A stretch of 64,000 nt of DNA from Bacillota bacterium. GTDB taxonomy: Bacteria; Bacillota; JAAYKD01. Both the position numbers and the translations under genes were made by a program. This document shows, piece by piece, positions 10,038-26,555 of the stretch. The stretch lies in contig OY762825.2 of the NCBI GenBank assembly GCA_963666425.2, positions 2,208,001-2,272,000 on the forward strand, in the 5' to 3' direction. The notes beneath the pieces were generated by a model. That model saw nothing but the letters and a program-made list of their open reading frames with translations, did no database searches and was not told the origin of the DNA. Position 1 is the stretch's first letter; each line of letters starts with the position of its first letter.

Positions 10038-10883
10038 ATGACAGGCCAAACTCTGCTGATAGAAACCAGGAACTTGAGCCATACGTTTCAAGGTCCGGAA
10101 AATCAGGAGATTCAAGCGCTTGATTCTGTTAACTTGACAATCTATTCCGGGGAATTTGTGGTGATTTTAGGTGCCAACGGTTCCGGTAAGTCTACTTTAG
10201 CCAAACACTTGAACGCTCTCTTGCTTCCAACAGAAGGAACTGTGTGGGTGGATGGCTTGGATACTGCCAGCGAGGAAGCACTTTGGACGATTCGGCAAAA
10301 TGTCGGGATGGTCTTTCAAAACCCAGACAATCAGATCGTGGCAACCATCGTAGAAGATGATGTCGCTTTCGGTCCGGAAAACTTAGGGCTTCCCCCTGCT
10401 CTCATCCGTGAGCGGGTTGCGGAAGCCCTTGTCATGGTTGGCATGAGTGAATTCAGGCAGCATGCTCCTCATTTACTATCCGGCGGTCAGAAACAACGTG
10501 TGGCAATTGCCGGAATTGTTGCGATGCGTCCGAAAGTGGTCGTTTTGGATGAAGCCACTGCCATGTTGGATCCACAGGGCCGCAGGGAAGTCATGGCTGC
10601 GATTCAACGGCTGCGCAGTGAAGGAATGACCGTGATTCTGATCACTCATCACATGAACGAAGCGGTGATGGCGGATCGGATCATTCTGCTGGATCAGGGT
10701 CGGATTGTTGATCAAGGCACACCGCATGATATTTTTCAAAAACGAGAGCAAATGAAGGCATTGGGTTTGGATATTCCCCAGATAGCGCAATTGGCGGCAT
10801 TGCTGAAGGCCGATCATCTGATCGAGCGCGATGATTTGCTCAGTGTGGAAGAGATGGTGAAGCAATTATGTCCATCATCTTAA
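10038..10883 (+). CDS. ecfA1: ECF transporter ATPase A1
   Basis: Walker A GANGSGKST, VFQNPDNQ, LSGGQKQR, DEATAMLDP; canonical position after rplQ. Confidence 0.95.
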   Translation: MTGQTLLIETRNLSHTFQGPENQEIQALDSVNLTIYSGEFVVILGANGSGKSTLAKHLNALLLPTEGTVWVDGLDTASEEALWTIRQNVGMVFQNPDNQIVATIVEDDVAFGPENLGLPPALIRERVAEALVMVGMSEFRQHAPHLLSGGQKQRVAIAGIVAMRPKVVVLDEATAMLDPQGRREVMAAIQRLRSEGMTVILITHHMNEAVMADRIILLDQGRIVDQGTPHDIFQKREQMKALGLDIPQIAQLAALLKADHLIERDDLLSVEEMVKQLCPSS

Positions 10884-11725
10884 AAAACGTCGGACTGGTC
10901 TACAGCCCCGGCACTCCTTTTGCTGCCTTTGCCTTACAAGAGATCAATTTGGAAATCGGCAGCGGCAAGCTGGTGGCAATCATTGGGCATACCGGTTCCG
11001 GAAAATCAACGCTCGTGCAGGTCATGGCCGGTCTGGAGCAGCCCAGCAGCGGCGAAGTGATACTGGACGATATTGTCTTGTACAAAAGAAATACAGATAG
11101 AAAACAACTGCGCAGGAAAGTCGGTATGGTCTTTCAATACCCGGAGCATCAGTTATTTGAAGAAACCGTCGAAAAAGAACTCGCATTCGGTTTGCTGAAG
11201 CAGGGCAGAAGTGAAGAAGAGATTCGCGTTCAAATGGAAAAGGCGATGCAATTTGCCCAATTAGCACCGGATTTGCTCAGCCGGTCTCCTTTTGAATTAT
11301 CCGGCGGTCAAATGCGGCGCTTAGCGATTGCCTCCGTCATTGCGATGGAGCCGGATTATCTGATCATGGATGAACCGACAGCCGGTCTCGATCCGGCTGG
11401 CAGGGACGAGATCTTGAGCGGTTTGGCTAAATGGCAGCGTCAAACGAAGAAGACGGTCATCTTAGTCTCCCACAGTATGGAGGATGTTGCGAAACTGGCA
11501 GAGGAAATTCTCGTCTTAACCGATGGTCGTTTAGTAATGTCGGGCGATACGAAGAGCATCTTTGCACGTGGGGAAGAACTGCAGCAAGTGGGACTCGATG
11601 TCCCGCAGGTAACCGCTTTGATGATGGAACTGAAACGGAAAGGTTGGCCAGTTCCCACCGATGTGATCAGTGTGGAAGAAGCTTATGCCAGCATTTCTGC
11701 ACTGCTCAGGAGGGGAAGGCCATGA
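10868..11725 (+). CDS. ecfA2: ECF transporter ATPase A2
   Basis: GHTGSGKST, VFQYPEHQLFEETV, SPFELSGGQMRR, DEPTAGLDP. Confidence 0.95.
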   Translation: MSIILKNVGLVYSPGTPFAAFALQEINLEIGSGKLVAIIGHTGSGKSTLVQVMAGLEQPSSGEVILDDIVLYKRNTDRKQLRRKVGMVFQYPEHQLFEETVEKELAFGLLKQGRSEEEIRVQMEKAMQFAQLAPDLLSRSPFELSGGQMRRLAIASVIAMEPDYLIMDEPTAGLDPAGRDEILSGLAKWQRQTKKTVILVSHSMEDVAKLAEEILVLTDGRLVMSGDTKSIFARGEELQQVGLDVPQVTALMMELKRKGWPVPTDVISVEEAYASISALLRRGRP

Positions 11726-12558
11726 ATTTATTACGGGGTGTAACCATTGGCCAGCATTATCCTCTCAATTCACCGATTCACCATCTGGACCCGCGCTTTA
11801 AAATCTGCTTTGTATTTCTCTATATTACGGCCCTGTTTACCGCCAGCGGGCCGCTCGCTTACGCAGTCCTGCTTCTGTTTTGTTTATTGATCATCTATCT
11901 GTCTAAAATCCCTTTTAAGCTGATTTTGCGTGGGCTGAAGCCTGTCCTATGGATCGTTGGCTTTACCCTGCTCCTGCACAGTTTTAGCACCGCTGAGGGA
12001 GAGATCCTCTGGCAATGGTGGCGGTTTACTCTTTACAGCGGCGGTATCCTGCGCGGTGTGATGATGTCAAGCCGTCTGATTCTGCTGATCAGTACGACCT
12101 CGCTGCTGACCTTAACTACCTCGCCCATTGCCCTAACCGACGGCTTGGAAGTGTTGATGAAGCCGCTGCAGCGTTTTGGTTTACCGGCTCATGAATTGGC
12201 GATGATGATGACCATTGCTTTGCGTTTTGTACCGACGCTGATTGAAGAAGCGGATAAGATCATCAAAGCGCAGACAGCCAGAGGTGCGGATTTTGAACAG
12301 GGCGGTTTGATCGCCCGTGCCAAAAATCTGCTGCCTGTCTTGGTCCCTCTCTTTATCAGCGCCTTTCGCCGAGCCGATGATCTCGCCATGGCGATGGAAG
12401 CGCGCTGTTATCGCGGCGGTGAACACCGTACCCGCATGAAAGAATTGAAAAGCGGCAGCAATGATTGGATAGCCTTGCTGATTCTCCTGGCTCTCTTTGC
12501 GCTCGTTCTTACACTCAGACTGACAGGGATGGATGTCTGGCAGGTTGCGGGGAACTAA
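11722..12558 (+). CDS. ecfT: ECF transporter transmembrane T component
   Basis: IHHLDPRFK, IALRFVPTL, AQTARG, AMEARCY; true start ATG 11722 (ATGA overlap with ecfA2), the ORF track over-extends it. Confidence 0.95.
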   Translation: MNLLRGVTIGQHYPLNSPIHHLDPRFKICFVFLYITALFTASGPLAYAVLLLFCLLIIYLSKIPFKLILRGLKPVLWIVGFTLLLHSFSTAEGEILWQWWRFTLYSGGILRGVMMSSRLILLISTTSLLTLTTSPIALTDGLEVLMKPLQRFGLPAHELAMMMTIALRFVPTLIEEADKIIKAQTARGADFEQGGLIARAKNLLPVLVPLFISAFRRADDLAMAMEARCYRGGEHRTRMKELKSGSNDWIALLILLALFALVLTLRLTGMDVWQVAGN

Positions 12559-12559
12559 A

Positions 12560-13336
12560 ATGAAGACCATTCGTTTGAATATACAGTATGACGGCAGCAG
12601 GTATCATGGCTGGCAGCGTCAGCCAAATGTTTTGACGATCCAGCAGCTGATTGAAGAAGCCATCACACAGTTAAGCGGTGAAAGCGTTATTCTCAACGGG
12701 GCAGGCCGTACCGATGCCGGCGTACATGCGATGGATCAATGGGCTCAATTTAAAACAGAAAGCCGCATTCCACCGGAAAAGTGGTATCCGGCGCTGAATA
12801 GCATCCTGCCCGGAGATATCCGTATCATGCATTCCGAAATGTGTGAACCGCTTTGGCATGCCCGTTTTGTACCGCATCAGAAGACCTATCGATATACGAT
12901 TGAAACAGCTCAGGTGGTTTCTCCTTTTCGGCAGGCGTATGTTTGGCATCGCCGTGGAGATTTGCCATTCGTCCGCCTGCAGGCGGCGGCTGAGTTGGTG
13001 CTGGGAGAGCATGATTTCAGTGCTTTCTGTGCGGCACACAGCGAAGTGAAGAATAAAGTGCGCCGGATTGCCGCCTCGGAGTGGCGGCAGGAAGAAACGC
13101 GTTTGATCTACAGTATCACCGGAAACGGATTTCTTTATAACATGGTCCGTCTGTTGGTTGGATTTATGGTGGAAATTGCCTCCGGAAAGCGGGAGCTGCA
13201 GCAAATGCAGAGTTTTCTTACCGCTGCCTGCCAAAGCAAAGCCAGCTTTACGGTACCGCCGCAGGGACTTTGTCTGTATGAGATAGTTTATGAAGAAATG
13301 CCTGCACTACTTGACATAAGCACAAATATTGACTAA
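12560..13336 (+). CDS. truA: tRNA pseudouridine(38-40) synthase
   Basis: YDGSRYHGWQRQ, AGRTDAGVHA, GEHDFSAF, GNGFLYNMVR. Confidence 0.97.
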   Translation: MKTIRLNIQYDGSRYHGWQRQPNVLTIQQLIEEAITQLSGESVILNGAGRTDAGVHAMDQWAQFKTESRIPPEKWYPALNSILPGDIRIMHSEMCEPLWHARFVPHQKTYRYTIETAQVVSPFRQAYVWHRRGDLPFVRLQAAAELVLGEHDFSAFCAAHSEVKNKVRRIAASEWRQEETRLIYSITGNGFLYNMVRLLVGFMVEIASGKRELQQMQSFLTAACQSKASFTVPPQGLCLYEIVYEEMPALLDISTNID

Positions 13337-13339
13337 AAT
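13311..13339 (+). promoter_or_regulatory. sigma-A promoter of rplM-rpsI
   Basis: TTGACA (13311) - 17 nt - TAAAAT (13334). Confidence 0.75.
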
Positions 13340-13349
13340 AGTAATGTTC

Positions 13350-13395
13350 TGTATTTCTGTCATCCGGTAACCCCGATATCTGACGGCAGAAAGCG
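13350..13395 (+). promoter_or_regulatory. probable L13 leader stem-loop
   Basis: TTCTGTCATCCGG...CCGATATCTGACGGCAGAA hairpin in the 5' UTR of rplM; not tested against a covariance model. Confidence 0.45.
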
Positions 13396-13442
13396 AAAAA
13401 CCCAAGATACAACAACTTTGAAAAATAAACGGAGGGAATACC

Positions 13443-13883
13443 GTGCGTACGACCTATATGGCCAAATCTTCTGAAGTGATCGACAAATGGTGGATCATTG
13501 ATGCAAGTGGTTTGGTGTTGGGACGCGTTGCAGCCGATGTGGCAGCGATTCTGCGTGGCAAACACAAACCAACCTTTACTCCTCACGTCAATTGCGGTGA
13601 TCATGTGATCATTATCAATGCCGACAAAATTGTTCTGACCGGTAATAAATTGGATCAGAAATTTGACGAGCATTATTCCGGATATTGGAGCGGTTTAAAG
13701 CGCGTTCCTTATCGTATTCTCATGGACAAGCATCCTGAACGTGCTTTGGAAAATGCCGTCAAAGGCATGTTGCCGCATACTCGTCTTGGCAAACAAATGA
13801 TGAAAAAATGCCGCATCTACGCCAGCCCTGAACATCCCCACGAAGCACAATGCCCTGAAGTCTGGGCAATCGGCAACAAATAA
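13443..13883 (+). CDS. rplM: 50S ribosomal protein L13
   Basis: [35 protein letters not shown]. Confidence 0.99.
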
Positions 13884-13901
13884 CGAAAGGGAGAAACGAC
13901 A

Positions 13902-14300
13902 GTGGTACAATATCGCATTAAAAATTATGGTACCGGCCGCCGCAAAAGTTCTGTGGCTCGGGTTCGTTTGATTCCCGGAACCGGTAATATCATCGTAAAT
14001 AATCGTGGCATTGACGAATATTTTGGTCTTGCTACCCTAAAGCTAATCATTCGCCAACCCTTGGTCCTCACCAAGACCGAAGGCGACTATGATGTCATCT
14101 GCAAAGTGGAGGGCGGCGGTAATTCCGGTCAAGCCGGTGCGATCCGTCATGGCATCTCCCGCGCGCTCTGCTCGATCGACGCGGAAATGCGTCCGATCTT
14201 GAAAAAGGCTGGTTTTCTTACCCGTGATCAACGGATGAAAGAACGTAAGAAATATGGCTTAAAGAAAGCACGCAAAGCGCCGCAATTCTCCAAACGTTAA
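13902..14300 (+). CDS. rpsI: 30S ribosomal protein S9
   Basis: [46 protein letters not shown]. Confidence 0.99.
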
Positions 14301-14334
14301 TTCTCCCGCAAACAAAACTTACGAACAAAACACG

Positions 14335-14373
14335 AGCAGCTATCGGATTTGTGGAATCCGACAGCTGCTTTTT
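14335..14373 (+). terminator. intrinsic terminator after rpsI
   Basis: AGCAGCTATCGGATT-TGTGG-AATCCGACAGCTGCT followed by a T-run. Confidence 0.8.
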
Positions 14374-14583
14374 GTCTGTACAAAATTTGGTCAATGGTTT
14401 TTTCCGGCTCGGGATTGTCGGACGATTAGAGCTAATTAGATTGCATAAAAAATAAAGCTGAGAAATAGTTATAATATTTAGAAGGAATTTTAAAAAAAGT
14501 GTCAAAAGAATATACAAAGACCTACTGACAGAGATGGCGATCACAAAGTTTGCCAAATCACAGCGAATCGAAGGAGGAAAAAA

Positions 14584-15432
14584 ATGAAACCATTGATCCT
14601 GATCACGGGGGAAGACGAATTTGATCCCAAATCGCACAACCCATTTTATCTGATTAAGCGCAGCTATGGCACGGCAGTGGCCGGCGCGGGCGGCACGGCC
14701 GTGATGCCGCTGGACCCGGCGCAGTGGGCGAGTTATGCCGAAATGGCGGATGGATTGCTGCTGACCGGCGGCGTGGATGTCCATCCGGCACGTTATAATG
14801 ATATCTTTATGGATTACGATCCGAATTCCGGAGCACCGGCGCCTTTTGTTATCAGCGTCACCCGGGATTCCATGGATATCCTGCTTTGCCAGGCATTTTT
14901 GCGGGCGGGTAAGCCAATCATGGGAATCGGACGCGGTTTGCAGGTGATCAATGTCGTTTTAGGCGGCACGATGGTCCAAGATATTGCGATTTTACTGCAG
15001 CAGGAACACCCGATTGGCCAGCACCACTGGGTTTCCACTACAGCCGGCAGTCAAATGCAGCAATTACTGGGAGAGAAGCTGGAAGTAAACAGTTATCATC
15101 ACATGGCAGTCAAGACGTTGGGTAATAATCTCAGCGTCAGCGCCTGGTCCGAAGATGGTCTGATCGAAGCCATCGAACATACCAGCCTGCCTGTTTTTGC
15201 GGTGCAGTGGCATCCGGAGACTTATCACACTGACGACGAAGAAATTCGAGCCCTGCATGCCGGTGTGACAGAACCGATCATGACGCTGGATGTCGAAGAA
15301 CTCGCAAAGCAGATCACGGCGACCGAACATAAAAAAGCCATTCCGGGTACTAAGACCGATGCGGATGTGGAATTGCCAACCGATAACGCATTGTTTAACT
15401 ACTTTATTGCTTTATGTCAAAAGGAGGGCTAA
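14584..15432 (+). CDS. peptidase C26 / PuuD-like class I glutamine-amidotransferase-fold protein, copy A1 (catalytic Cys replaced by Gly)
   Basis: DGLLLTGGVDVHPARY, KPIMGIGRGLQVINV, VNSYHH, AVQWHPE. Confidence 0.9.
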   Translation: MKPLILITGEDEFDPKSHNPFYLIKRSYGTAVAGAGGTAVMPLDPAQWASYAEMADGLLLTGGVDVHPARYNDIFMDYDPNSGAPAPFVISVTRDSMDILLCQAFLRAGKPIMGIGRGLQVINVVLGGTMVQDIAILLQQEHPIGQHHWVSTTAGSQMQQLLGEKLEVNSYHHMAVKTLGNNLSVSAWSEDGLIEAIEHTSLPVFAVQWHPETYHTDDEEIRALHAGVTEPIMTLDVEELAKQITATEHKKAIPGTKTDADVELPTDNALFNYFIALCQKEG

Positions 15433-15436
15433 TAAA

Positions 15437-16162
15437 GTGAAAAAACCGATTATCATGATCATGTGGGGCTCTTGTTTGGAGAATCAGTTTCTCTCTCATG
15501 CTAATATGCTGACCAAGGCCTACAGCGCGGCGATTACCGCCGGCGGCGGCATTCCGCTTTTGCCGCTGGTGCAAAGTCAGGTGAAGGAATATGCCAAGCT
15601 GGCCGATGGTTTGCTGCTGCCGGGTGCGATGGGCTACTCGCCCAAACCGGAGCTGGCAAAACACCTGGCAGCAGAGCGTTTTTCACGTCAATCGGATTTT
15701 GAGAGTGAATTGTATCAGGCTTTCAAGGCCGCCGGCAAACCGATCCTGGGGATTTGCGCCGGCTGCCAGAAAATGAATTGTGAAGAAGGCGGCACTTTAC
15801 AGCTTGATTTTCGAAAAATGTTTGGTATAGAACATAGTGTCGGTGTGACGCATGCGGTAGATGCGGTCGCCGGCTCGCTGCTGAATGAAATTTGGGGTGA
15901 GCATTTTTTCATCAACAGTTATCATGGCTTTCGCATCGCGCAATTAGGTAAAGGTTTTAGAATTACAGCCTATTCGCCGGAAGGGATTCCCGAGGCGATT
16001 GAGCATCAGGAATTGCCATTCTACGGAACACAGTTCCATCCGGAGCGGATGCGCGGTGATTTTCCCAATCCACCGGAAGGGCCCAATTCCGATCCTCTTT
16101 TCCAGCGCTTTGTTGAATTGTGCGCCACGGCTGCGGCTCAGAACGAACTGCACGGGTGCTAA
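15437..16162 (+). CDS. peptidase C26 / gamma-glutamyl hydrolase-like protein, copy B1 (Cys-His-Glu triad intact)
   Basis: GTG start after AAGGAGG; DGLLLPG, KPILGICAGCQ, INSYH, GTQFHPE. Confidence 0.9.
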   Translation: MKKPIIMIMWGSCLENQFLSHANMLTKAYSAAITAGGGIPLLPLVQSQVKEYAKLADGLLLPGAMGYSPKPELAKHLAAERFSRQSDFESELYQAFKAAGKPILGICAGCQKMNCEEGGTLQLDFRKMFGIEHSVGVTHAVDAVAGSLLNEIWGEHFFINSYHGFRIAQLGKGFRITAYSPEGIPEAIEHQELPFYGTQFHPERMRGDFPNPPEGPNSDPLFQRFVELCATAAAQNELHGC

Positions 16163-16239
16163 AGAGACGTTCGTTCTCGCGTGGATGGTTGCAGCTTTCG
16201 CGTAAAATGATTTAAAAAACAGAGAATGGAGTGAATGAC

Positions 16240-17091
16240 TTGAAACCATTGATCCTGATCACGGGGGAAGACGAATTTGATCCCAAATCGCACAACCCAT
16301 TTTACCTGATTAAACGCAGCTATGGCACGGCAGTGGCCGGCGCGGGCGGCACAGCCGTAATGCCACTGGATCCGGTGCAGTGGGCGAGTTATGCCGAAAT
16401 GGCGGATGGTCTGCTGCTGACCGGCGGCGTGGATGTCCATCCGGCACGTTATAATGATATCTTTATGGATTACGATCCGAATTCCGGCGCACCGGCGCCT
16501 TTTGTTATCAGCGTCACCCGGGATTCCATGGATATCCTGCTTTGCCAGGCATTTTTGCGGGCGGGTAAGCCAATCATGGGAATCGGACGCGGTCTGCAGG
16601 TGATCAATGTCGTTTTAGGCGGCACGATGGTCCAGGATATTGCGATTTTGCTGCAGCAGGAACACCCGATTGGCCAGCACCACTGGGTTTCCACCACAGC
16701 CGGCAGTCAAATGCAGCAATTACTGGGAGAGAAACTGGAAGTAAACAGTTATCATCACATGGCAGTCAAGACGTTGGGAAAGGATCTGAGTGTCAGCGCC
16801 TGGTCCGAAGATGGTCTGATTGAAGCCATCGAGCATACCAGCCTGCCTGTTTTTGCGGTGCAGTGGCATCCGGAGACCTATCGAACCGATGACGAGGAAA
16901 TTCGAGCCCTGCATGCCGGTGTGACAGAACCGATCATGACGGTGGATGCCGATGAACTCGCAAAGCAGATCACGGCGACCGAACATAAAAAAGCCATTCC
17001 GGGTTATAAGACCGATGCGGATGTGGAATTGCCAACCGATAACGCATTGTTTAACTACTTTATTGCATTATGTCAAAAGGAGGGCAAATAA
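16240..17091 (+). CDS. peptidase C26-like protein, copy A2 (catalytic Cys replaced by Gly)
   Basis: Near-identical to A1 (about 10 aa differences by eye); TTG start at the position equivalent to the A1 ATG. Confidence 0.9.
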   Translation: MKPLILITGEDEFDPKSHNPFYLIKRSYGTAVAGAGGTAVMPLDPVQWASYAEMADGLLLTGGVDVHPARYNDIFMDYDPNSGAPAPFVISVTRDSMDILLCQAFLRAGKPIMGIGRGLQVINVVLGGTMVQDIAILLQQEHPIGQHHWVSTTAGSQMQQLLGEKLEVNSYHHMAVKTLGKDLSVSAWSEDGLIEAIEHTSLPVFAVQWHPETYRTDDEEIRALHAGVTEPIMTVDADELAKQITATEHKKAIPGYKTDADVELPTDNALFNYFIALCQKEGK

Positions 17092-17092
17092 A

Positions 17093-17809
17093 GTGAAAAA
17101 ACCGATCATCATGATCATGTGGGGCTCTTGTTTGGAGAATCAGTTTCTCTCTCACGGTATGATGCTGACCAAGGCCTACAGCGCGGCGATTACCGCCGGT
17201 GGCGGCATTCCGCTCTTGCCGCTGGTGCAGAGTCAAGTGATGGAATATGTCAAACTGGCCGATGGTTTGCTGCTGCCGGGCGGCATGGGTTATGTGCCGC
17301 GGCCTCAATTGGGAAGACATCTGGCAGCAGAACGCTTTTCACGTCAATCGGATTTTGAGAGTGAATTGTATCAGGCTTTCAAGGCCGCCGGCAAGCCGAT
17401 CCTGGGGATTTGCGCCGGCTGTCAGAAAATCAATTGTGAAGAAGGCGGCAGCCTGGAATTGGACTTTCGACGGAATACCGGCATAGAGCATCATATGGGC
17501 AGCAGCCACGCTGTAAAAGCAGCTGCGGGCAGTTTATTTGACCAATTGTTTGGTGATCATTTCCGCATCAACAGTTATCATGGTTATAAAATCAGCCAAT
17601 TGGGTGAGCAGCTAAAAGTGACGCTGCTGTCACCGGAAGGAATTCCCGAGGCGATTGAGCATCTGAAATATCCTATTTTTGGCACGCAATGGCATCCGGA
17701 GCGGATGCGCGGTGATTTTCCCAATCCACCGGAGGGCCCGGATACAACAGTGCTCTTCCGTCATTTCATTCGATTGTGTGGGGATCGACGGGATCAAGAG
17801 CAAGCTTAA
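17093..17809 (+). CDS. peptidase C26 / gamma-glutamyl hydrolase-like protein, copy B2 (triad intact)
   Basis: GTG start; KPILGICAGCQ, INSYH, GTQWHPE; paralog of B1. Confidence 0.9.
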   Translation: MKKPIIMIMWGSCLENQFLSHGMMLTKAYSAAITAGGGIPLLPLVQSQVMEYVKLADGLLLPGGMGYVPRPQLGRHLAAERFSRQSDFESELYQAFKAAGKPILGICAGCQKINCEEGGSLELDFRRNTGIEHHMGSSHAVKAAAGSLFDQLFGDHFRINSYHGYKISQLGEQLKVTLLSPEGIPEAIEHLKYPIFGTQWHPERMRGDFPNPPEGPDTTVLFRHFIRLCGDRRDQEQA

Positions 17810-18328: not shown

Positions 18329-19660
18329 ATGAAGACAGGAATTGTAGGTCCAAAGATTACTGTTGAGAGAATCATATCGAACTTGGAAACCAAAAAACTC
18401 TTTGTTGAATATGTTCCCATCATTTATGAAAAACTGCAGGATGCTGTGGCACTGGTACGAGCACATATCGGAGTCGTGGATAATTTTTATTTCACCGGTC
18501 CGATACCGTACCACTATATCCGGACAAAAATGACCTTGCCATGTCCGGTGGAATACCGTACGGTAGATAGTAATGCCTTTGTTGTGATGCTGTTTCAAGC
18601 CAATTATCATTTTCACTGTGATATCAAAAAGGTGACTGCAGATTTTTACGATAACACGAACCTTGCCAAAGCTTATAACCTTTTAGAAATACCCGCTTCC
18701 CAAGTAAAGATCCTGGAAGCGCAATATGATATTTTCGACAATGAGTATCCGGAAAAAAACGCGGAATTTCATATTGCCAACATTGCGGAAGGAAATGCAA
18801 ATTTCTGCCTGACCGGAACCGAGCGAACTTACGAAATACTGAAAGCAAAAGGTTATCCCGTTATTATGGCCCAGCCTTCTCAGGAGCAGCCGGAAATGCA
18901 GATCAATCAGCTGCGCTTGCGTAATGTGATGGCTTTACGGGATGAAAATGAATCTTCAGTTATTTCTATCGCGGTGGAATATGGTGTTGAACAGGAAGGT
19001 GCCATTACCACCGAGCTGCAGAATTATCAGATCCGCGGACAGATTATGGAGAAGATTTATTATTACGCTCAGAGATTGGATGCGGCAGTGGAAAAGCAGG
19101 AGAATGGTGACCTGATCTATCGCATCTACACCACCAAATCGATTCTCAGCGATGAAACCAGCGGCTACCGCAAACTGCGCTTGTTGGATGAATTGCCGGG
19201 TCTCTTTGGGGTCGTCAAAGTCGGCATTGGCATCGGCCTTGGTGAGACGACGGCAGAAGCGAAGAGGAATGCTGATTTTGGCTGTGAACGGGCGAGTAAT
19301 TACGAAACCGACTGCTTCTTTATTGTCTATGATGACCAGAAAATCGCTGGGCCGATCATCCAGACCGAAGTGGTCAAAAAGAATGAAGAAATTAATGGCG
19401 AACTCTATTTAATCTCCCGGGATACGCAGGTGGGTTTGGATAAATTGATCATTATCGATGCAGTCCTCGACCAATATGGGGTTGATGTGATCACCCCGGG
19501 AGAATTGGCACGTTTATGCGAATTGCCTCTGAACAGAGTGAATCGTCTGATCACCAAATTAGAATCATCGGGTTACGCTAGAGTCATCGGCAAAAAGCCG
19601 TTGAATGGTTCGGGTCGTCCCAGCCGTCTCGTCCAAATTAACCTTAAAAAGCGGATTTAA
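18329..19660 (+). CDS. putative transcriptional regulator (sensor-like N-terminus, central GGDEF/cyclase-like fold, C-terminal winged HTH)
   Basis: N-terminal GIVGP...FTGPIPY, central VGIGIGLGETTAEAKRNA, C-terminal ITPGELARLCELPLNRVNRLITKLESSGYA...GRPSRL. Confidence 0.7.
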   Translation: MKTGIVGPKITVERIISNLETKKLFVEYVPIIYEKLQDAVALVRAHIGVVDNFYFTGPIPYHYIRTKMTLPCPVEYRTVDSNAFVVMLFQANYHFHCDIKKVTADFYDNTNLAKAYNLLEIPASQVKILEAQYDIFDNEYPEKNAEFHIANIAEGNANFCLTGTERTYEILKAKGYPVIMAQPSQEQPEMQINQLRLRNVMALRDENESSVISIAVEYGVEQEGAITTELQNYQIRGQIMEKIYYYAQRLDAAVEKQENGDLIYRIYTTKSILSDETSGYRKLRLLDELPGLFGVVKVGIGIGLGETTAEAKRNADFGCERASNYETDCFFIVYDDQKIAGPIIQTEVVKKNEEINGELYLISRDTQVGLDKLIIIDAVLDQYGVDVITPGELARLCELPLNRVNRLITKLESSGYARVIGKKPLNGSGRPSRLVQINLKKRI

Positions 19661-19671
19661 TCCGCTTTTTT
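19646..19671 (+). terminator. hairpin/terminator overlapping the regulator stop codon
   Basis: AAAAAGCGGAT-TTA-ATCCGCTTTTTT. Confidence 0.65.
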
Positions 19672-19879
19672 GGTTGTTTTGGCAGAGGGTTTCGATGATA
19701 CAAAAACAAAATCATGCAAGGGAGGGTTGTAGCGGTATTGCCGAGTTCAATTTTTAATCGGAATTATTCGTTGAGATCTTATTATCGGCAGCAATGTGTA
19801 AAATGAAAAGAAATGATGGAATCAAGACAGCTCTTGTAGGGACAAACTGTCTGACAGAACTCAGAATGGAGGATTTGAT

Positions 19880-20665
19880 ATGACCATTATTCCAGGGAAG
19901 ATTTTTTCCTTTCTCGTCCTGATCGTGCTGAGCATAATAACGGTTTACATGATTAAGAGGATGCAGACGAGCAGTGAACCGGTGGATGTTCGTCGTTTAG
20001 CCGGATTGGATGCGCTGCAGGAAGTGGTTGGCCGTGCTACGGAAACCGGACGCCCCATCCATTACAACCCCGGCATGGGTTCCGTTGAAAGCGCCAGTAC
20101 CGGCGCACGTGTTTTGGGCGGTATGGAAGTTTTGGGCTGGCTGAGTAACCAATGTGCCCGCTATGATACACGCTTGATTTCAACTTACTGTGCACCTTCC
20201 ACTTACGCAATCGCGCGCGAAGTCATTCGGAACGGATACGTGCAGGCAGGAAAACCAGAAAGTATGAATGAAGAAACCGCACAATTTTTATCCAGCGACC
20301 AAATGGCATTTGCTATGGGCGCAGTATCCATTATGCAGCGGGAACGCATCGCCTCTAATGTGCTGATCGGCAGCTACGGCGCAGAATGCCTGCTGTTGGC
20401 GGAAGCCGGCAATACCCTGGGCGCGATCCAGATTTCCGGTGATACCAATGCTTACCAATTGCCTTTCCTGATTGTTACTTGCGACTATTCTTTGATTGGT
20501 GAAGAGCTCTTTGCCGCCGGCGCCGTTTTGAGCAACAATCGCGATGTTTACGGTTCTTTGATTGCGCAGGATTACGGTAAATTGGCCGCTGTGGTCTTGA
20601 TCATCGCCGGCAGTGTGATGGCGACCTTCGGCAATACGGTTTTAACAAAATTATTCAGTTGGTAG
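19880..20665 (+). CDS. DUF6754-like membrane-anchored protein
   Basis: N-terminal TM, VRRLAGLDALQEVVGRATETGRPIHY, QLPFLIVTCDYSLIGEELFAAGA, C-terminal TM; family recognised from memory. Confidence 0.75.
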   Translation: MTIIPGKIFSFLVLIVLSIITVYMIKRMQTSSEPVDVRRLAGLDALQEVVGRATETGRPIHYNPGMGSVESASTGARVLGGMEVLGWLSNQCARYDTRLISTYCAPSTYAIAREVIRNGYVQAGKPESMNEETAQFLSSDQMAFAMGAVSIMQRERIASNVLIGSYGAECLLLAEAGNTLGAIQISGDTNAYQLPFLIVTCDYSLIGEELFAAGAVLSNNRDVYGSLIAQDYGKLAAVVLIIAGSVMATFGNTVLTKLFSW

Positions 20666-20678
20666 GAGGTGAGCGTAA

Positions 20679-21299
20679 ATGAAAAGAACAGTTCCGTTGA
20701 TCATTGCCTTTATAGTTGGTATGGGTTTATTGTTGGATAACTTTATTAAACTTACTCCGTTGAATACTTCCATGGTGACTTTGCGTTCCTGGCTGGTTAT
20801 CATTGCCTTGTTTTCCCTGATGGTGGCAGCGCTCAACCTTTTAATGGTGCATATCCCACGGATCATCAAACGCAAAGGTACTTGGTCACAGAGTATTGTC
20901 CTGGTTACTTTTATGCTGCTGACCATTATTAGCGGTATTTTCATCGGTACCAAAGGGACAATCTATCAGACTCTTTATACCGGTATTATGACGCCGGGCG
21001 GTTCTACCGTCAATGCGTTATTGGCCTTCTTTATTGCTTCCGCAGCAGTGCGGACCTTCCGGGCTAGAAATCTGGAATCCACACTCCTCTTGATTACTGC
21101 CATTATTCTGATGTTATCCAATGTCACCATTGGTAATGCGATCAGTCAGTACATTCCCGTTGTTGGTAATTGGATCACCAATGTACCGAATGCGACTGCA
21201 CAGCGGGGCTTGATTATTTCCAGTTCACTGGCCTTTGTCACCATTAACTTAAGAAATATCCTCGGCTTCAGCACCCAGTGGCTGGGCGGCAAAGATTAG
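20679..21299 (+). CDS. uncharacterised integral membrane protein (about 6 TM)
   Basis: Hydrophobic; LLAFFIASAAVRTFRARN, VPNATAQRGLII; RBS GGAGG. Confidence 0.8.
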   Translation: MKRTVPLIIAFIVGMGLLLDNFIKLTPLNTSMVTLRSWLVIIALFSLMVAALNLLMVHIPRIIKRKGTWSQSIVLVTFMLLTIISGIFIGTKGTIYQTLYTGIMTPGGSTVNALLAFFIASAAVRTFRARNLESTLLLITAIILMLSNVTIGNAISQYIPVVGNWITNVPNATAQRGLIISSSLAFVTINLRNILGFSTQWLGGKD

Positions 21300-21311
21300 G
21301 GGGGCGGGCAG

Positions 21312-22154
21312 ATGAAAAAGTTTAACATCTTCGATCTCGATAAAAGAATTACTTATCTCTTACTGCTGATTATGATTGTTTTCCCCTTGCTCTATCCGAT
21401 TGGGATTGCCATCAAACCATCGGAAAACACCATCCTTGCCTATAATTATGTGGAATCCTTAAAACCAGGTTCTTCCGTCATTCTCTTTATTGACTTTGGC
21501 ATGGGCAATAGTGCAGAACTGACACCGCAGGTGATCGCTTCTTTAAAACACTTTGCCAGGAAAGACCTGAAAGTATATGCCGCTACGCAAGTGCCGGAAA
21601 TGGCGACCGCCCTTGAATCGTATTTGGAGCAGACTTATGGGGCAGCAGGCAAGGTCTACGGTGAAGATTATATCGACCTAGGCTACTTTGCCGGTGCAGA
21701 ATCTGCCATCGGCGCCATGGGTGATAGCCTGATTGCTGTCTTTAAAACGGATAGCAGAGGCACTGATCTGACCAAGATTCCGATGATGAAATCTGTTGTG
21801 AAATTGCCTGATATTAACGTGGTTTTTGCTGTGACGGCATCCGGCACAATTCCATTCATCCGTCAGTGCAATGCCAAGTTCGGTATGCCGATTATTTTCT
21901 CGGTCAATGCCGTCATGGGACCTGCCAATGTACCTTATGTTCAATCCGGACAAGCGGTATCCGTGCTGGTAGGTAGTCCCGCTGCCGCGCAATATGAAAC
22001 GATCATCGGCGAGCCGGGTGTAGCAACTGCCGCCATGGATGCGCAATCGCTGGCTCATGTTATCATCATTCTTTTGATTGTTTGGGGTAATATTGGCTAT
22101 TTTGTGGAAAAACGTCAAAAGCAAGCAAAAAAATCAGAAGAAAAGAAAGCCTAA
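21312..22154 (+). CDS. uncharacterised protein with 2 TM segments and a large soluble domain
   Basis: TM - alpha/beta domain (YGEDYIDLGYFAG, PYVQSGQ, AAAQYE, MDAQSLAH) - TM - basic tail. Confidence 0.8.
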   Translation: MKKFNIFDLDKRITYLLLLIMIVFPLLYPIGIAIKPSENTILAYNYVESLKPGSSVILFIDFGMGNSAELTPQVIASLKHFARKDLKVYAATQVPEMATALESYLEQTYGAAGKVYGEDYIDLGYFAGAESAIGAMGDSLIAVFKTDSRGTDLTKIPMMKSVVKLPDINVVFAVTASGTIPFIRQCNAKFGMPIIFSVNAVMGPANVPYVQSGQAVSVLVGSPAAAQYETIIGEPGVATAAMDAQSLAHVIIILLIVWGNIGYFVEKRQKQAKKSEEKKA

Positions 22155-22166
22155 GGAGGTGCACTA

Positions 22167-22781
22167 ATGCAAATCAGTAATAATCCTGTCGTTTGGTTGG
22201 CCGCCTTTGTTACGGTCTCGATCCTCAGTTTCGTTTTCTGGAATGACAGTCCGTTTTATAAATATGTGCAAAGCGCTTATTTAGGCGTAGCTGCTGGTAT
22301 CACGGTGGTGGTTGGCTGGGGCAATATAAAAAGTCAGGTGATTGCTCCTTTAGCAAAAGGTGACTACAGCATGGTTGTGCCGATTATTTTCGGCTGCCTC
22401 CTGCTGATCCGCTTTATTCCCGGTTTAAATTGGGTCGCACGATATCCGGTCGCAATCTTAGTCGCCGGCGGCGCCGGCCTAGGCTTGGCCAATACCGTGC
22501 AGGCACAGTTTGTCAGTCAGATCAAAGCTGCTTTACTGCCTCTCAACAACATCAATAATCTGATCATGTTTGTCGGTTTAATCGCGGTGATTGCCTTCTT
22601 TTTCCTGACCGGTCGGACCACGCATGCGATTGAGAAATTTAAACTTGGTTGGCTGACCTATCTTGGCCGCCTCGTTTTGATGATTGCTTTCGGTGCAGCC
22701 TTTGGTACCACGGTCATGGGACGCTGTTCCATACTGATTGGCCGTATGCAGTTCCTTTTGACCGATTTACTCGGTTTATAA
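22167..22781 (+). CDS. uncharacterised integral membrane protein (about 6 TM)
   Basis: DSPFYKYVQSAYLGVAAG, GRLVLMIAFGAAFGTTVMGR; RBS AAGGAGG. Confidence 0.8.
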   Translation: MQISNNPVVWLAAFVTVSILSFVFWNDSPFYKYVQSAYLGVAAGITVVVGWGNIKSQVIAPLAKGDYSMVVPIIFGCLLLIRFIPGLNWVARYPVAILVAGGAGLGLANTVQAQFVSQIKAALLPLNNINNLIMFVGLIAVIAFFFLTGRTTHAIEKFKLGWLTYLGRLVLMIAFGAAFGTTVMGRCSILIGRMQFLLTDLLGL

Positions 22782-22802
22782 AAAGTAAATTTTACTTTCA
22801 AT

Positions 22803-22842
22803 GAACATCCTTCCTCTTACTAAAGAGGAAGGATGTTCGTTT
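22803..22842 (+). terminator. terminator ending the four-gene membrane operon
   Basis: Perfect 16-bp stem GAACATCCTTCCTCTT-ACTA-AAGAGGAAGGATGTTC then GTTT. Confidence 0.85.
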
Positions 22843-22941
22843 TACGGTAATCAGCAGAAAATGCAGGAAAGCAGCGGATCCGACACGAATTAAAAAGCAT
22901 CGCTCATGCTTTTGAGTGAAATACGAACTTGGAGGTTCTTC

Positions 22942-24424: not shown

Positions 24425-25240
24425 ATGAGTCTAGTCGCAGAATTGCCGCCGCAGTGGCTGAAAAAAGCCAAAGTGTTTATCTTGGATATGGATGGAACCA
24501 TCTATCTGGGTGGACGGCTTTTCCCTTTCACACAGAACTTTTTGCAGGAAATCAGCAACAGCGGCCGACGCTATGTCTTCTTTACCAATAACTCTTCCCG
24601 CAGCGTGGCAGACTATCGGGAAAAATTGGCTGGTATGGGCATCAAAACCGCAGAGAATCAGCTCTATAATGCAACACAGGTTTTGTTGGAAGATTTACTG
24701 CAGAGACAGACAAGTCCTACGGTTTTTGTAGTCGGCACGCAAGTCTTGCAAAAAGAATTCATTCAGGCGGGATTTCAATGCAGCGAGGCTGCCGATCTTG
24801 TCGTGTTGGGTTTTGATACGGAACTAACCTACGATAAAGTAAAAACAGCCTGTGATTTGATTCGGCAGGGGGTTGCTGTCGTTGGGATCAATCCGGATTT
24901 GAATTGTCCGGTGGAGAACGGTTTTCTGCCCGACTGCGGTTCCATCGCCGCGCTGATCACGGCATCGACCGGCGTTAAAATAGAGTTTTATGGCAAACCA
25001 AGCCGCTATACCTTAGACTTTCTCAAACGAAAAACCGGTGTTCGCGAAGAAGAACTCGTCTTTGTCGGCGACCGCCTTTATACGGATATTGCGATCAGCC
25101 AAGGCAGCCAGGCACACAGCATTTTGGTTTATTCCGGTGAGACAAAAAAAAGCTCTGCCGAGAATCCGCACTGCAAACCGGATTTGGCTTGCGCAGATTT
25201 AGCAGAGCTGGCCATCTTGCTAAAAAAAGCAGACGGTTAA
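24425..25240 (+). CDS. HAD-IIA hydrolase (NagD family)
   Basis: LDMDGTIY, FTNNSSRS, NPDLNCP, PDCGS, GKPS, VGDRLYTDI. Confidence 0.92.
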   Translation: MSLVAELPPQWLKKAKVFILDMDGTIYLGGRLFPFTQNFLQEISNSGRRYVFFTNNSSRSVADYREKLAGMGIKTAENQLYNATQVLLEDLLQRQTSPTVFVVGTQVLQKEFIQAGFQCSEAADLVVLGFDTELTYDKVKTACDLIRQGVAVVGINPDLNCPVENGFLPDCGSIAALITASTGVKIEFYGKPSRYTLDFLKRKTGVREEELVFVGDRLYTDIAISQGSQAHSILVYSGETKKSSAENPHCKPDLACADLAELAILLKKADG

Positions 25241-25878
25241 ATGTTGATTCCTTTTAAGAAAAGCTCCGTGTTAAAATACTTGGCGGCATCATCAATCAAG
25301 AGTGCATCTGGCGTTAGAAATTTCAGCAGCAAGCGGGCGCTGCCTTTGCCACCGCCGGAGCCGGGTGCAGCCACGAGAGCACAGGAGAAATCGCTGCCGC
25401 GCAGTGCGATGCTATAGCGCTCCTCACTGTAAAATAAAAAAGGTGAACGGAGCTTAACGCAGGTCAGTGGTGTCAGCTGAACTTGTTCTATTTCACTGAC
25501 TGCGGTGCGGTTGGATTTGATCACGAGATCGAAGCAGCCGCTGAAGCCAAAATAGACAGCCAGTTGATCCGCAGCTTCCAGACCAAAAATACGGCTGGCA
25601 TGATCAGCCAACCATTGCGGCAAACGTGCGTTGCTGTCATTGCTGAGATCGAGCACTTCTCTCTGCTTCATTAACTGGCGCTCGAGTCGGCTAAGGACTT
25701 GAGAGACACCATTCTGTTCTTTCTCAATCAGAAAAGCGATATCCTCTGTCGTTAAGCTGGAAAAAAGCAGGCTGGGTATCTGGTAAAATTCTCCCAGATG
25801 GCGCATGCTCAAAGGCTGTGAAAAATGGATCGCCCGGTAGACGGAGGCGGGAATGAGGGCTGCATTTTGATTTTTCAA
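25237..25878 (-). CDS. hypothetical protein
   Basis: 213-aa ORF directly downstream of the HD gene with an AAGGAAG RBS; no motif recognised. Confidence 0.6.
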   Translation of the reverse strand: MKNQNAALIPASVYRAIHFSQPLSMRHLGEFYQIPSLLFSSLTTEDIAFLIEKEQNGVSQVLSRLERQLMKQREVLDLSNDSNARLPQWLADHASRIFGLEAADQLAVYFGFSGCFDLVIKSNRTAVSEIEQVQLTPLTCVKLRSPFLFYSEERYSIALRGSDFSCALVAAPGSGGGKGSARLLLKFLTPDALLIDDAAKYFNTELFLKGINI

Positions 25879-25895
25879 GATGGTTGCTTCCTTTC

Positions 25896-26555
25896 TTACA
25901 TCATAACCATTTGATTGACAATCAGGCTGAAGCGCAGTTTTAGAAATTCTGCGGCGCGGCGGCAGAGCAGCATGCGGCTGATGAAAATCTCAAAATACTC
26001 CATCGGCGGGCAGATTTGGGGATCGATGGTGATATTCAGCGTAATCAGCTTTTTTTCTGCTTCGATCAGCAGATCGCAATGTTCCACGGCATAATTGACT
26101 CGGTCATGTATATCAAAAGCAGTGGAATTTCGGTTCCGTACACGACTGCGGCGCACATCACTCTTGTCGGCGATGATCAAAGCGGCGCTGATCGGATTGA
26201 CGGCGACCGCAGTCGCCTCATCATGCGTTCCGATGGCGGAGACAATCAAAGCAATTTCATCTGCCGGCAGCGCCAGGTTTTGCAGCAGCGTGAAGGCCAT
26301 AATACCGCCGCTGTGCGCATGATCCACCCGGTTGACCAAATTACCGATATCATGCATGTAACCCGCAATTTTGGCTAATTCCACCATCCTCGCGCTGTAA
26401 TCCAGGGCTGTGAGGATTTTAGCGGCGCGGTCGGCACTCAGCAAAGCATGCGGGAAGGAATGCTCGGTATAGCCGAGTTCCTTCATCATCTGATCGCTTT
26501 GTTCGATATAGGTATGCAAATTCGAGTTTTCTTTAACTTGTGCAAAAGTGACCAT
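25896..26555 (-). CDS. HD-domain phosphohydrolase
   Basis: GYTEHSFPH, YMHDIGN, IIADKSDVRRSRVR, DIHDRVNYAV. Confidence 0.9.
   Translation of the reverse strand: MVTFAQVKENSNLHTYIEQSDQMMKELGYTEHSFPHALLSADRAAKILTALDYSARMVELAKIAGYMHDIGNLVNRVDHAHSGGIMAFTLLQNLALPADEIALIVSAIGTHDEATAVAVNPISAALIIADKSDVRRSRVRNRNSTAFDIHDRVNYAVEHCDLLIEAEKKLITLNITIDPQICPPMEYFEIFISRMLLCRRAAEFLKLRFSLIVNQMVMM

Follow-up and report, generated by a model that had tools for sequence, protein, structure and literature searches.

The closest described relative of the system reported here is the DUF6754 family (Pfam PF20539). Among 8000 candidates scored, 6396 proteins belonged to this family at E <= 0.001, and its members are annotated only as 'hypothetical' or 'DUF6754 domain-containing'. 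In the searches made here, no member had a name, a structure or a literature entry. A literature search by term returned nothing under DUF6754 or under PF13941, the family of the ATPase described below. The literature on GlmL and glutamate mutase, on ASKHA transporters and on MutL reactivases held nothing on this system in its titles and abstract openings. We analyzed a DUF6754 protein encoded in a stretch of 64,000 nucleotides (positions 2,208,001 to 2,272,000 of contig OY762825.2, assembly GCA_963666425.2, from a Bacillota bacterium), which we refer to as the window. It is the product of the first gene of a four-gene cassette at 19880-22781 on the + strand, and we labelled the four genes g1, g2, g3 and g4. 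The g1 protein is a full-length member of the family, with the same layout of a transmembrane (TM) segment on either side of a domain and in the same unit, and no difference from the family was found.

We observed that the four genes are kept together in many lineages, and that in two phyla the occurrence of the cassette coincides almost perfectly with that of a separate ATPase module. The reading that we favor, tentatively, is that the cassette is the substrate-specific membrane module of a larger, modular and probably ATP-coupled uptake system, transport being what we infer.

The four genes form a fixed genetic unit

Species-representative genomes were searched with a profile built from g1 homologues; at least 577 stretches matched, and 80 of these loci were retained. 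Hidden Markov models grown from each of the window proteins were searched over 86 loci, and the homologous open reading frames (ORFs) numbered 104 for g1, 98 for g2, 91 for g3 and 88 for g4, the four families showing no overlap. The loci came from Bacillota, WOR-3, Zixibacteria, Eisenbacteria, Poribacteria, Fermentibacteria, Latescibacterota, Cloacimonas, an Armatimonadota-type lineage and Bathyarchaeia. We observed that 63 of the 93 same-strand groups consisted of exactly g1-g2-g3-g4, and that 8 more were tandem arrays of two or three units. A locus end had cut 11 groups, and the other 11 were mostly short loci or split ORFs. The order was changed in only one group of the 93, where g4 stood before g3, and the g2 homologues invariably came behind g1. 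The 78 complete cassettes that could be extracted from the fetched loci all had the order seen in the window. These findings show the four genes to be a fixed unit, and the recurrence of the cassette in bacteria and archaea, which the preliminary description had put forward, was borne out. As 78 complete cassettes of other genomes hold homologues in this order, all four ORFs are, on this comparative evidence, real genes.

The DUF6754 family is large and spans many bacterial phyla as well as archaea, and in one candidate phylum it is nearly universal (91 of 101 genomes). Symbiobacterium thermophilum and Anaerobranca gottschalkii are among its named carriers. The number of units in a genome ranges from one to at least eight; in the phylum of the window, up to 8 or more DUF6754 matches were counted per genome. 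The genome of the window itself has four cassettes, namely a tandem pair (C1:1.104-1.112 Mb), one at 1.465 Mb and the window copy. It also has an orphan g3 (G000:C1:2286251-2287141, or L092:14251-15141) that is accompanied by none of g1, g2 and g4; this orphan lies downstream of an M20-like gene (L092:11718-13142). Upstream of the tandem cassettes we noticed ORF-poor spacers of about 1 kb and about 1.4 kb (L005:9538-10497 and 13614-15002). They gave no Rfam match, and the first spacer, the one examined, held no ORF of 50 aa or longer.

In the window the four genes are closely packed on the + strand. The DUF6754 subunit g1 (19880..20665, 261 aa) matched PF20539 with an E of 8.5e-74 and 248.4 bits (cut-off 27), over positions 10-257 of the 257-position profile, so that its earlier assignment to this family was correct. 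It is followed by the polytopic membrane subunit g2 (20679..21299, 206 aa), by g3 (21312..22154, 280 aa), which our ORF, AlphaFold2 (AF2) model and charge counts describe as a TM helix, a domain, a second TM helix and a basic tail, and by g4 (22167..22781, 204 aa), again a polytopic membrane subunit. Both g2 and g4 were called as ORFs and are unassigned to any family in Pfam and NCBIfam. The gaps between the genes, from the ORF coordinates, are 13 nt (g1-g2), 12 nt (g2-g3) and 12 nt (g3-g4), and each of the four genes has a purine-rich, Shine-Dalgarno-like run of the GGAGG type 6-10 nt 5' of its start codon. An intrinsic terminator closes the operon (22800..22846, + strand), made up of an inverted repeat at 22800-22841 and a following GUUUU. 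The hairpin has 19-nt arms that are 95% complementary, with a perfect 16-bp core inside them, and its folding energy of -31.3 kcal/mol (z = -8.4) was equalled by none of 200 shuffles. It was missing from the consensus terminator scan because its tail is T-poor. The coordinates, the Shine-Dalgarno runs and the hairpin thus agree with the operon as it had been described, with four tightly spaced, co-oriented genes, a ribosome-binding site before each, and a perfect 16-bp terminator. Metatranscriptome data from two runs of two studies contributed one short contig each in g1 (261 and 192 nt), which is too little to speak for transcription or for an operon transcript, and the uncovered stretches carry no weight either way.

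The ATPase module linked to the cassette

Clustering of the genes that flank the cassettes revealed four recurrent same-strand neighbors, which we called c0, c1, c2 and c3. Of these, c1 (about 620 aa) is a GlmL/MutL-type actin-fold ATPase that matches PF13941 ('MutL') at E 1.8e-128, and the c1 of this genome matches the whole 450-position model (E 3.1e-126). The motifs that we take to be the phosphate and adenosine motifs of the ASKHA (actin/Hsp70/sugar-kinase) fold show conservation of 90% or higher across 24 c1 sequences. The N-terminus of c0 (about 375 aa) matches the barrel-sandwich models NqrA_N, RnfC_N and Biotin_lipoyl, and a domain of the NqrA_N/RnfC_N type was present in all three c0 proteins scanned (best E 6.4e-05 and 8.2e-07). 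The remaining two are a small, membrane-associated protein of about 130 aa (c2) and a protein of about 160 aa with two TM segments (c3).

At least one gene of this module was adjacent to, and co-oriented with, the cassette in 20 of 82 loci. Module and cassette were found in two arrangements, c3-c2-c1-c0-cassette and c3-cassette-c1-c0-c2, and two different gene orders point to function rather than to inherited synteny. In the genome of the window there is a single c3-c2-c1-c0 operon (G000:C1:2274516-2278815), the only copy that has c2 and c3, compared to four cassettes; it lies 44 kb downstream of the window cassette and 2.5 kb past the end of the window. The neighbors of this cassette-linked c1 are Tex, c3, c2, c0 and a Bro-N protein, and the 10 proteins scanned around it included no mutase family. 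The genome also carries four further c1-c0 pairs without c2, c3 or a cassette (L093-L096, near 0.73, 1.04, 1.18 and 1.95 Mb), and two of them hold a gene of 282-287 aa, of no recognized kind, between c1 and c0.

We further estimated how DUF6754 and c2 are distributed over whole genomes, using 301 genomes of the window's phylum and 101 genomes of a second phylum that was reached via the locus L053. In the window's phylum, DUF6754 was present in 26 of the 301 genomes and c2 in 25, all of which were among the 26; that is, c2 was found in 25 of 26 DUF6754-positive and in 0 of 275 DUF6754-negative genomes. In the one DUF6754 carrier that lacked c2 (G101), the DUF6754 match is itself partial, covering positions 65-249 (E 4e-25). 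The pattern was repeated in the second phylum, where 88 genomes had both, 3 had DUF6754 only, 1 had c2 only and 9 had neither, so that c2 accompanied DUF6754 in 88 of 91 positive genomes and was present in 1 of 10 negative ones. There c2 was single-copy in 88 of its 89 carriers, while DUF6754 reached six matches. In all three genomes whose cassette locus was without c genes, c2 was located elsewhere. PF13941 itself occurred in 152 of the 301 genomes and in 25 of the 26 that were DUF6754-positive, the exception being G017, which is 78% complete; the form with a long frame (606-636 aa) is the one that stands beside c2. Since related genomes are not independent, these tables overstate the significance of the co-occurrence.

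The preliminary description had called the operon ATPase-free and had regarded its four proteins as a heterotetrameric uptake system. The first statement holds for the cassette, which encodes no ATPase, and does not hold for the family, which is tied to the GlmL/MutL-type module both by the 20 loci and by co-occurrence. As the cassette is tied to this module, a self-sufficient heterotetramer is unlikely to be the whole machine. It could still be argued that the four proteins are a complete secondary transporter, driven by an ion gradient, the role of the ATPase module being limited to assembly, regulation or repair. The cassette comes with a leader and a terminator of its own and without any nucleotide-binding family, 62 of the 82 loci have no adjacent c-module gene, the module of this genome is 44 kb distant, and the Arg and Asn that are invariant in hydrophobic stretches of the g2 alignment could bind ions or substrate. 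We consider such a transporter rather improbable, however, in view of the near-perfect co-occurrence with c2 in two phyla, and also since the strong conservation of the cytoplasmic domain of g1 would be hard to explain if nothing docked there.

Subunit topology, divergence and gene neighborhood

Hydropathy analysis gave two TM segments around a soluble domain for g1 and g3, and several TM segments for g2 and g4, as had been noted at the outset for two proteins with a soluble domain and two polytopic ones of about 205 aa. The AF2 models of g1 and g3 (mean predicted local distance difference test scores 88.3 and 94.6) each showed a Rossmann-like alpha/beta domain between two TM helices. In the sequence searches, g2, g3 and g4 had no Pfam match at E <= 0.01, none of g1-g4 had an NCBIfam match, and neither Pfam nor a scan for weak matches reported an ATP-binding cassette (ABC), major facilitator superfamily (MFS), phosphotransferase system (PTS) or tripartite ATP-independent periplasmic (TRAP) family for any of the four. 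The earlier impression that no known transporter signature is visible was therefore upheld in Pfam, NCBIfam and the weak-match scan. The PDB held no sequence relative below E 0.1 for the profiles of g1-g4 or for single c1 and c0 sequences, and the ESM Atlas returned only unnamed clusters for g2 and c0.

The fold searches pointed to no specific relative of g1 or g3, the lists holding sirtuins, short-chain dehydrogenases/reductases, RCK/KTN domains, transhydrogenase dIII and MT0777. An internal duplication was rejected: BLASTP found nothing between g1 and g3 or between g2 and g4, and the hhalign probabilities were 2.6% and 4.7%, respectively. The soluble domains of g1 and g3 nevertheless return overlapping generic fold lists despite this undetectable relationship. 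A prediction of the four-chain complex with g1 as partner was not discriminating, since a control in which chain 3 was replaced scored as high as the real complex.

The orientation of the two soluble domains was judged from family-wide counts of lysine plus arginine. For g1 these were 5.7 at the membrane-proximal ends of the domain and 0.7 and 1.4 at the termini, while for g3 they were 3.8 in the basic C-terminal tail and 2.4 at the ends of the domain. Because of these positive-inside charge counts, the g1 domain is probably cytoplasmic and the g3 domain (residues 35-245, approximately) probably extracytoplasmic. Some weaker observations agree with this topology. Long forms of g1 in other phyla have an N-terminal extension with weak fn3 matches in 2 of 8 (E about 1e-3). 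In one g3 homologue (P0121, 838 aa; a single record) a CARDB-containing insert of about 555 aa interrupts the soluble domain, and the long N-terminal extension of another g3 starts with a zinc ribbon. A search for longer fused forms of g3 returned only 2 proteins, so such fusions are rare and add little.

The g1 domain has 20 residues that are invariant across 24 sequences, many of them acidic. Their presence in a Rossmann-like fold would suit a membrane-bound enzyme or group-translocation complex, in which the g1 domain, or c1 through its relatedness to hydantoinases and oxoprolinases, modifies the entering substrate, for example by opening or activating a lactam or amide at the expense of ATP. 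A weak Hydantoinase_A match of c1 (E 1.8e-4), and the amidohydrolases and C26 enzymes that recur nearby, would fit as well. But no cofactor or catalytic motif was recognized, the fold matches are generic and the sequences belong to no known enzyme family, and we regard such a complex as very improbable.

When we compared paralogous cassettes within loci, 10 of 13 pairs had their lowest identity in g3, and no pair had its highest there; the median identities were 51% for g1, 46% for g2, 40% for g3 and 51% for g4. The tandem cassettes of this genome are 98% identical in g1, 95% in g2, 74% in g3 and 97% in g4. Synonymous divergence (dS) along this pair is uneven as well, at 0.10 for g1, 0.30 for g2, 1.69 for g3 and 0.56 for g4, and the dN/dS of g3 is 0.10. 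Positive (diversifying) selection on g3 is excluded by this ratio and by the uneven dS. The g3 gene is, rather, old and constrained in both copies, and either g1, g2 and g4 have been homogenized after an old duplication or g3 has been swapped. The orphan g3 is 59% identical to the tandem-type g3. We regard g3 as the candidate specificity subunit, and the tandem pair, with near-identical core subunits and a different g3, is a natural experiment on specificity. A variable outer domain, a conserved inner domain and one shared cytoplasmic module together suggest a receptor-plus-motor design of a modular kind.

The window cassette stands downstream of four genes of the Peptidase_C26, or class-I glutamine-amidotransferase, type (14584..17809, + strand) that form two tandem pairs. 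Three copies were scanned and matched Peptidase_C26 at E 1.9e-48, 2.6e-48 and 1.7e-33. They are a tandem duplication of a two-gene unit with a period of 1656 nt, and the identity between the copies is 97% in the first 300 nt and 84% in a later stretch of 110 nt. We observed that the orthologous cassette, with subunit identities of 68 to 96%, lies directly downstream of C26 genes in all four relatives, which belong to three genera; in two of them nothing stands between the C26 genes and the cassette. The tie to adjacent hydrolases that the preliminary description had drawn is supported in this way, and the uptake of peptides or gamma-glutamyl compounds, which it had proposed, can reasonably be supposed. 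Peptidase_C26 was not among the 25 commonest neighbor families elsewhere, and the link between C26 genes and cassette is lineage-specific.

Between the C26 genes and the cassette lies a gene for a 443-aa protein (18329..19660, + strand) with a C-terminal winged-helix motif, a candidate local regulator. Its only Pfam match is a weak one to HTH_24 (E 0.0044, below cut-off), and it has no relative in NCBIfam or the PDB. The protein keeps this place in 2 of the 4 relatives and could represent an undescribed regulator family. The terminator scan placed a terminator-like hairpin of this gene at 19646-19670, and the 219 nt between the terminator of this gene and g1 (19661..19879, + strand) make up the leader and promoter region of the cassette. 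We found no Rfam family in this leader, and no riboswitch or T-box before any cassette in the window and the three loci from the same genome. A T-box leader (L006:16728-17004; 103 bits) does precede an ABC ATPase gene, and a PBP gene is followed by a tandem glycine riboswitch (L005:18773-18994; 51.8 and 33 bits), neither of them being before a cassette. On the - strand of the window (25237-26555) there are two adjacent genes for proteins of 213 and 219 aa that have no Pfam match and are conserved by the cassette region in 2 of the 4 relatives. The end of a ribosomal-protein region, with an ABC ATPase, CbiQ/EcfT, TruA, L13 and S9, lies at 10038-14300, and so the window also contains a classical energizing module of an energy-coupling factor (ECF) transporter a few kb upstream of the cassette. 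These CbiQ and ABC genes (10038-12558) belong to the housekeeping ribosomal cluster and not to the cassette.

Another cassette of this genome is followed by M32 and DUF885 genes. We also tallied 132 same-strand neighbors (putative operon mates) in 50 loci, and the commonest families were the glycine-cleavage P protein (5), amidohydrolases (5), ABC ATPases (4), class I/II aminotransferases (4), class V aminotransferases (4) and PALP (3), followed by M20, DUF885, GcvH and DAO with 2 each. This neighborhood points towards the catabolism of amino acids and peptides.

Not all of the neighbors are of this kind. The two tandem cassettes lie beside glycolysis and PBP genes and not beside catabolic enzymes, and the extra c1-c0 pairs have among their neighbors a CDP-alcohol phosphatidyltransferase, an MBOAT/DHHW acyltransferase pair and an MFS gene. 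Such surroundings would suit an envelope machine (for export, flipping or insertion of an envelope component) or a transmembrane sensor, variable in its outer domain, conserved in its inner one and coupled to the actin-fold ATPase, rather than a nutrient transporter. So would the exported fn3-like extension on some g1 proteins and the CARDB insert in one g3, as fn3 and CARDB are domains typical of surface proteins. Set against this, up to 8 or more copies served by one shared module, and the repeated neighborhood of cytoplasmic enzymes that degrade amino acids, fit a substrate-specific uptake system better, and we consider a role in the envelope or in sensing to be unlikely.

Proposed mechanism and comparison with known systems

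If the cassette is a substrate-specific part of an ATP-coupled uptake system, g3 would expose its variable alpha/beta domain on the outside and act as a tethered substrate receptor, while g2 and g4 would together provide the route across the membrane. Docking of the shared c1/c0 module (with c2 and c3) would fall to the conserved cytoplasmic domain of g1, and ATP turnover by c1 would drive or gate import. One energizing module would in this way serve many specificity modules, as in ECF transporters. The window copy would most likely import a gamma-glutamyl-type or other amide-linked amino-acid derivative, to be cleaved by the cytoplasmic C26 amidohydrolases.

Several observations weigh against such an uptake system. 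The coupling between cassette and ATPase module is one of adjacency elsewhere and of co-occurrence in genomes that are not independent, the module being 44 kb away in this genome. The co-occurrence has its exceptions, with DUF6754 but no c2 in G101, G326, G352 and G402, and c2 but no DUF6754 in G338. The c1-c0 pairs that have no cassette, together with the wide occurrence of PF13941, indicate that this ATPase family has other jobs too, and GlmL/MutL is generally regarded as assisting a B12 enzyme in the manner of a chaperone, and not as driving transport. The polytopic subunits g2 and g4 match no transporter family, and fold searches with the g1 and g3 models (Foldseek against the PDB, and VIA-align wide) gave flat lists of generic Rossmann matches, with best Z values of 10.6 and 10.3, respectively. 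The tandem cassettes are without a catabolic partner, and the neighbor tally is diffuse, with 161 families in 132 proteins, the top family in just 5 of them, and no background control.

A bolder form of the proposal would add this system to the ABC and ECF transporters as a primary active importer of a third kind, in which one actin/Hsp70-fold ATPase module per cell serves many interchangeable four-subunit modules. The g3 of each module would then receive a different amino-acid-derived substrate, and the window copy would serve the upstream C26 enzymes. We regard this as doubtful in its entirety. If the cassette does belong to an uptake system, the metabolic reconstructions made for many uncultured degraders of peptides and amino acids lack a major import route, and if its motor is an actin-fold ATPase, this would be a new way to energize transport. 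The window copy offers a concrete handle, as its tie to C26 amidohydrolases extends across three genera.

We compared the system with four described ones. The linked ATPase is closest to GlmL/MutL of glutamate mutase, as c1 matches the whole PF13941 model. However, the cassette-linked frames are 606-636 aa long and the best-scoring family matches about 440-490 aa, and in this genome c1 stands beside c2, c3 and c0 and not beside mutase genes. The likeness to Rnf and Na+-NQR is confined to the N-terminal barrel-sandwich domain of c0. The two polytopic subunits of about 205 aa do resemble RnfA/E or NqrD/E in size, but g2 and g4 gave no Rnf-Nqr match, and the scans reported neither a flavin nor an iron-sulfur domain.

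The importers that depend on binding proteins (ABC, TRAP and TTT systems) are similar in that g3 is predicted to be an extracytoplasmic, rapidly diverging alpha/beta domain beside polytopic subunits, and the extra orphan g3 resembles an orphan binding protein. Periplasmic sugar-binding proteins were found only among the generic matches to the g3 model (Z 8.3, Foldseek E about 1e-3). The difference is that g3 is modelled as a single Rossmann-like lobe with a TM helix at each end, and not as a free or lipid-anchored protein of two lobes. None of the DctP/Q/M, TctA/B/C and ABC permease families was found for the cassette, and DctQ/DctM, TctA/B, MFS_1 and PTS EIIC were absent from the 25 commonest weak matches of 52 members.

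The ECF importers are alike in having one energizing module per genome and several dispersed membrane modules that are substrate-specific. In contrast to them, g1-g4 and c0-c3 lack an ABC ATPase, CbiQ/EcfT and any S-component family, and ABC_tran was found neither in g1-g4, nor in the c0-c3 representatives, nor in the 52 members scanned at E <= 1. The ATPase linked to the cassette has the actin/Hsp70 fold (PF13941) in their place, and each specificity module has four subunits instead of one. Taken together, these comparisons suggest a system that shares its logic with the ECF and the binding-protein-dependent importers and no part with either.

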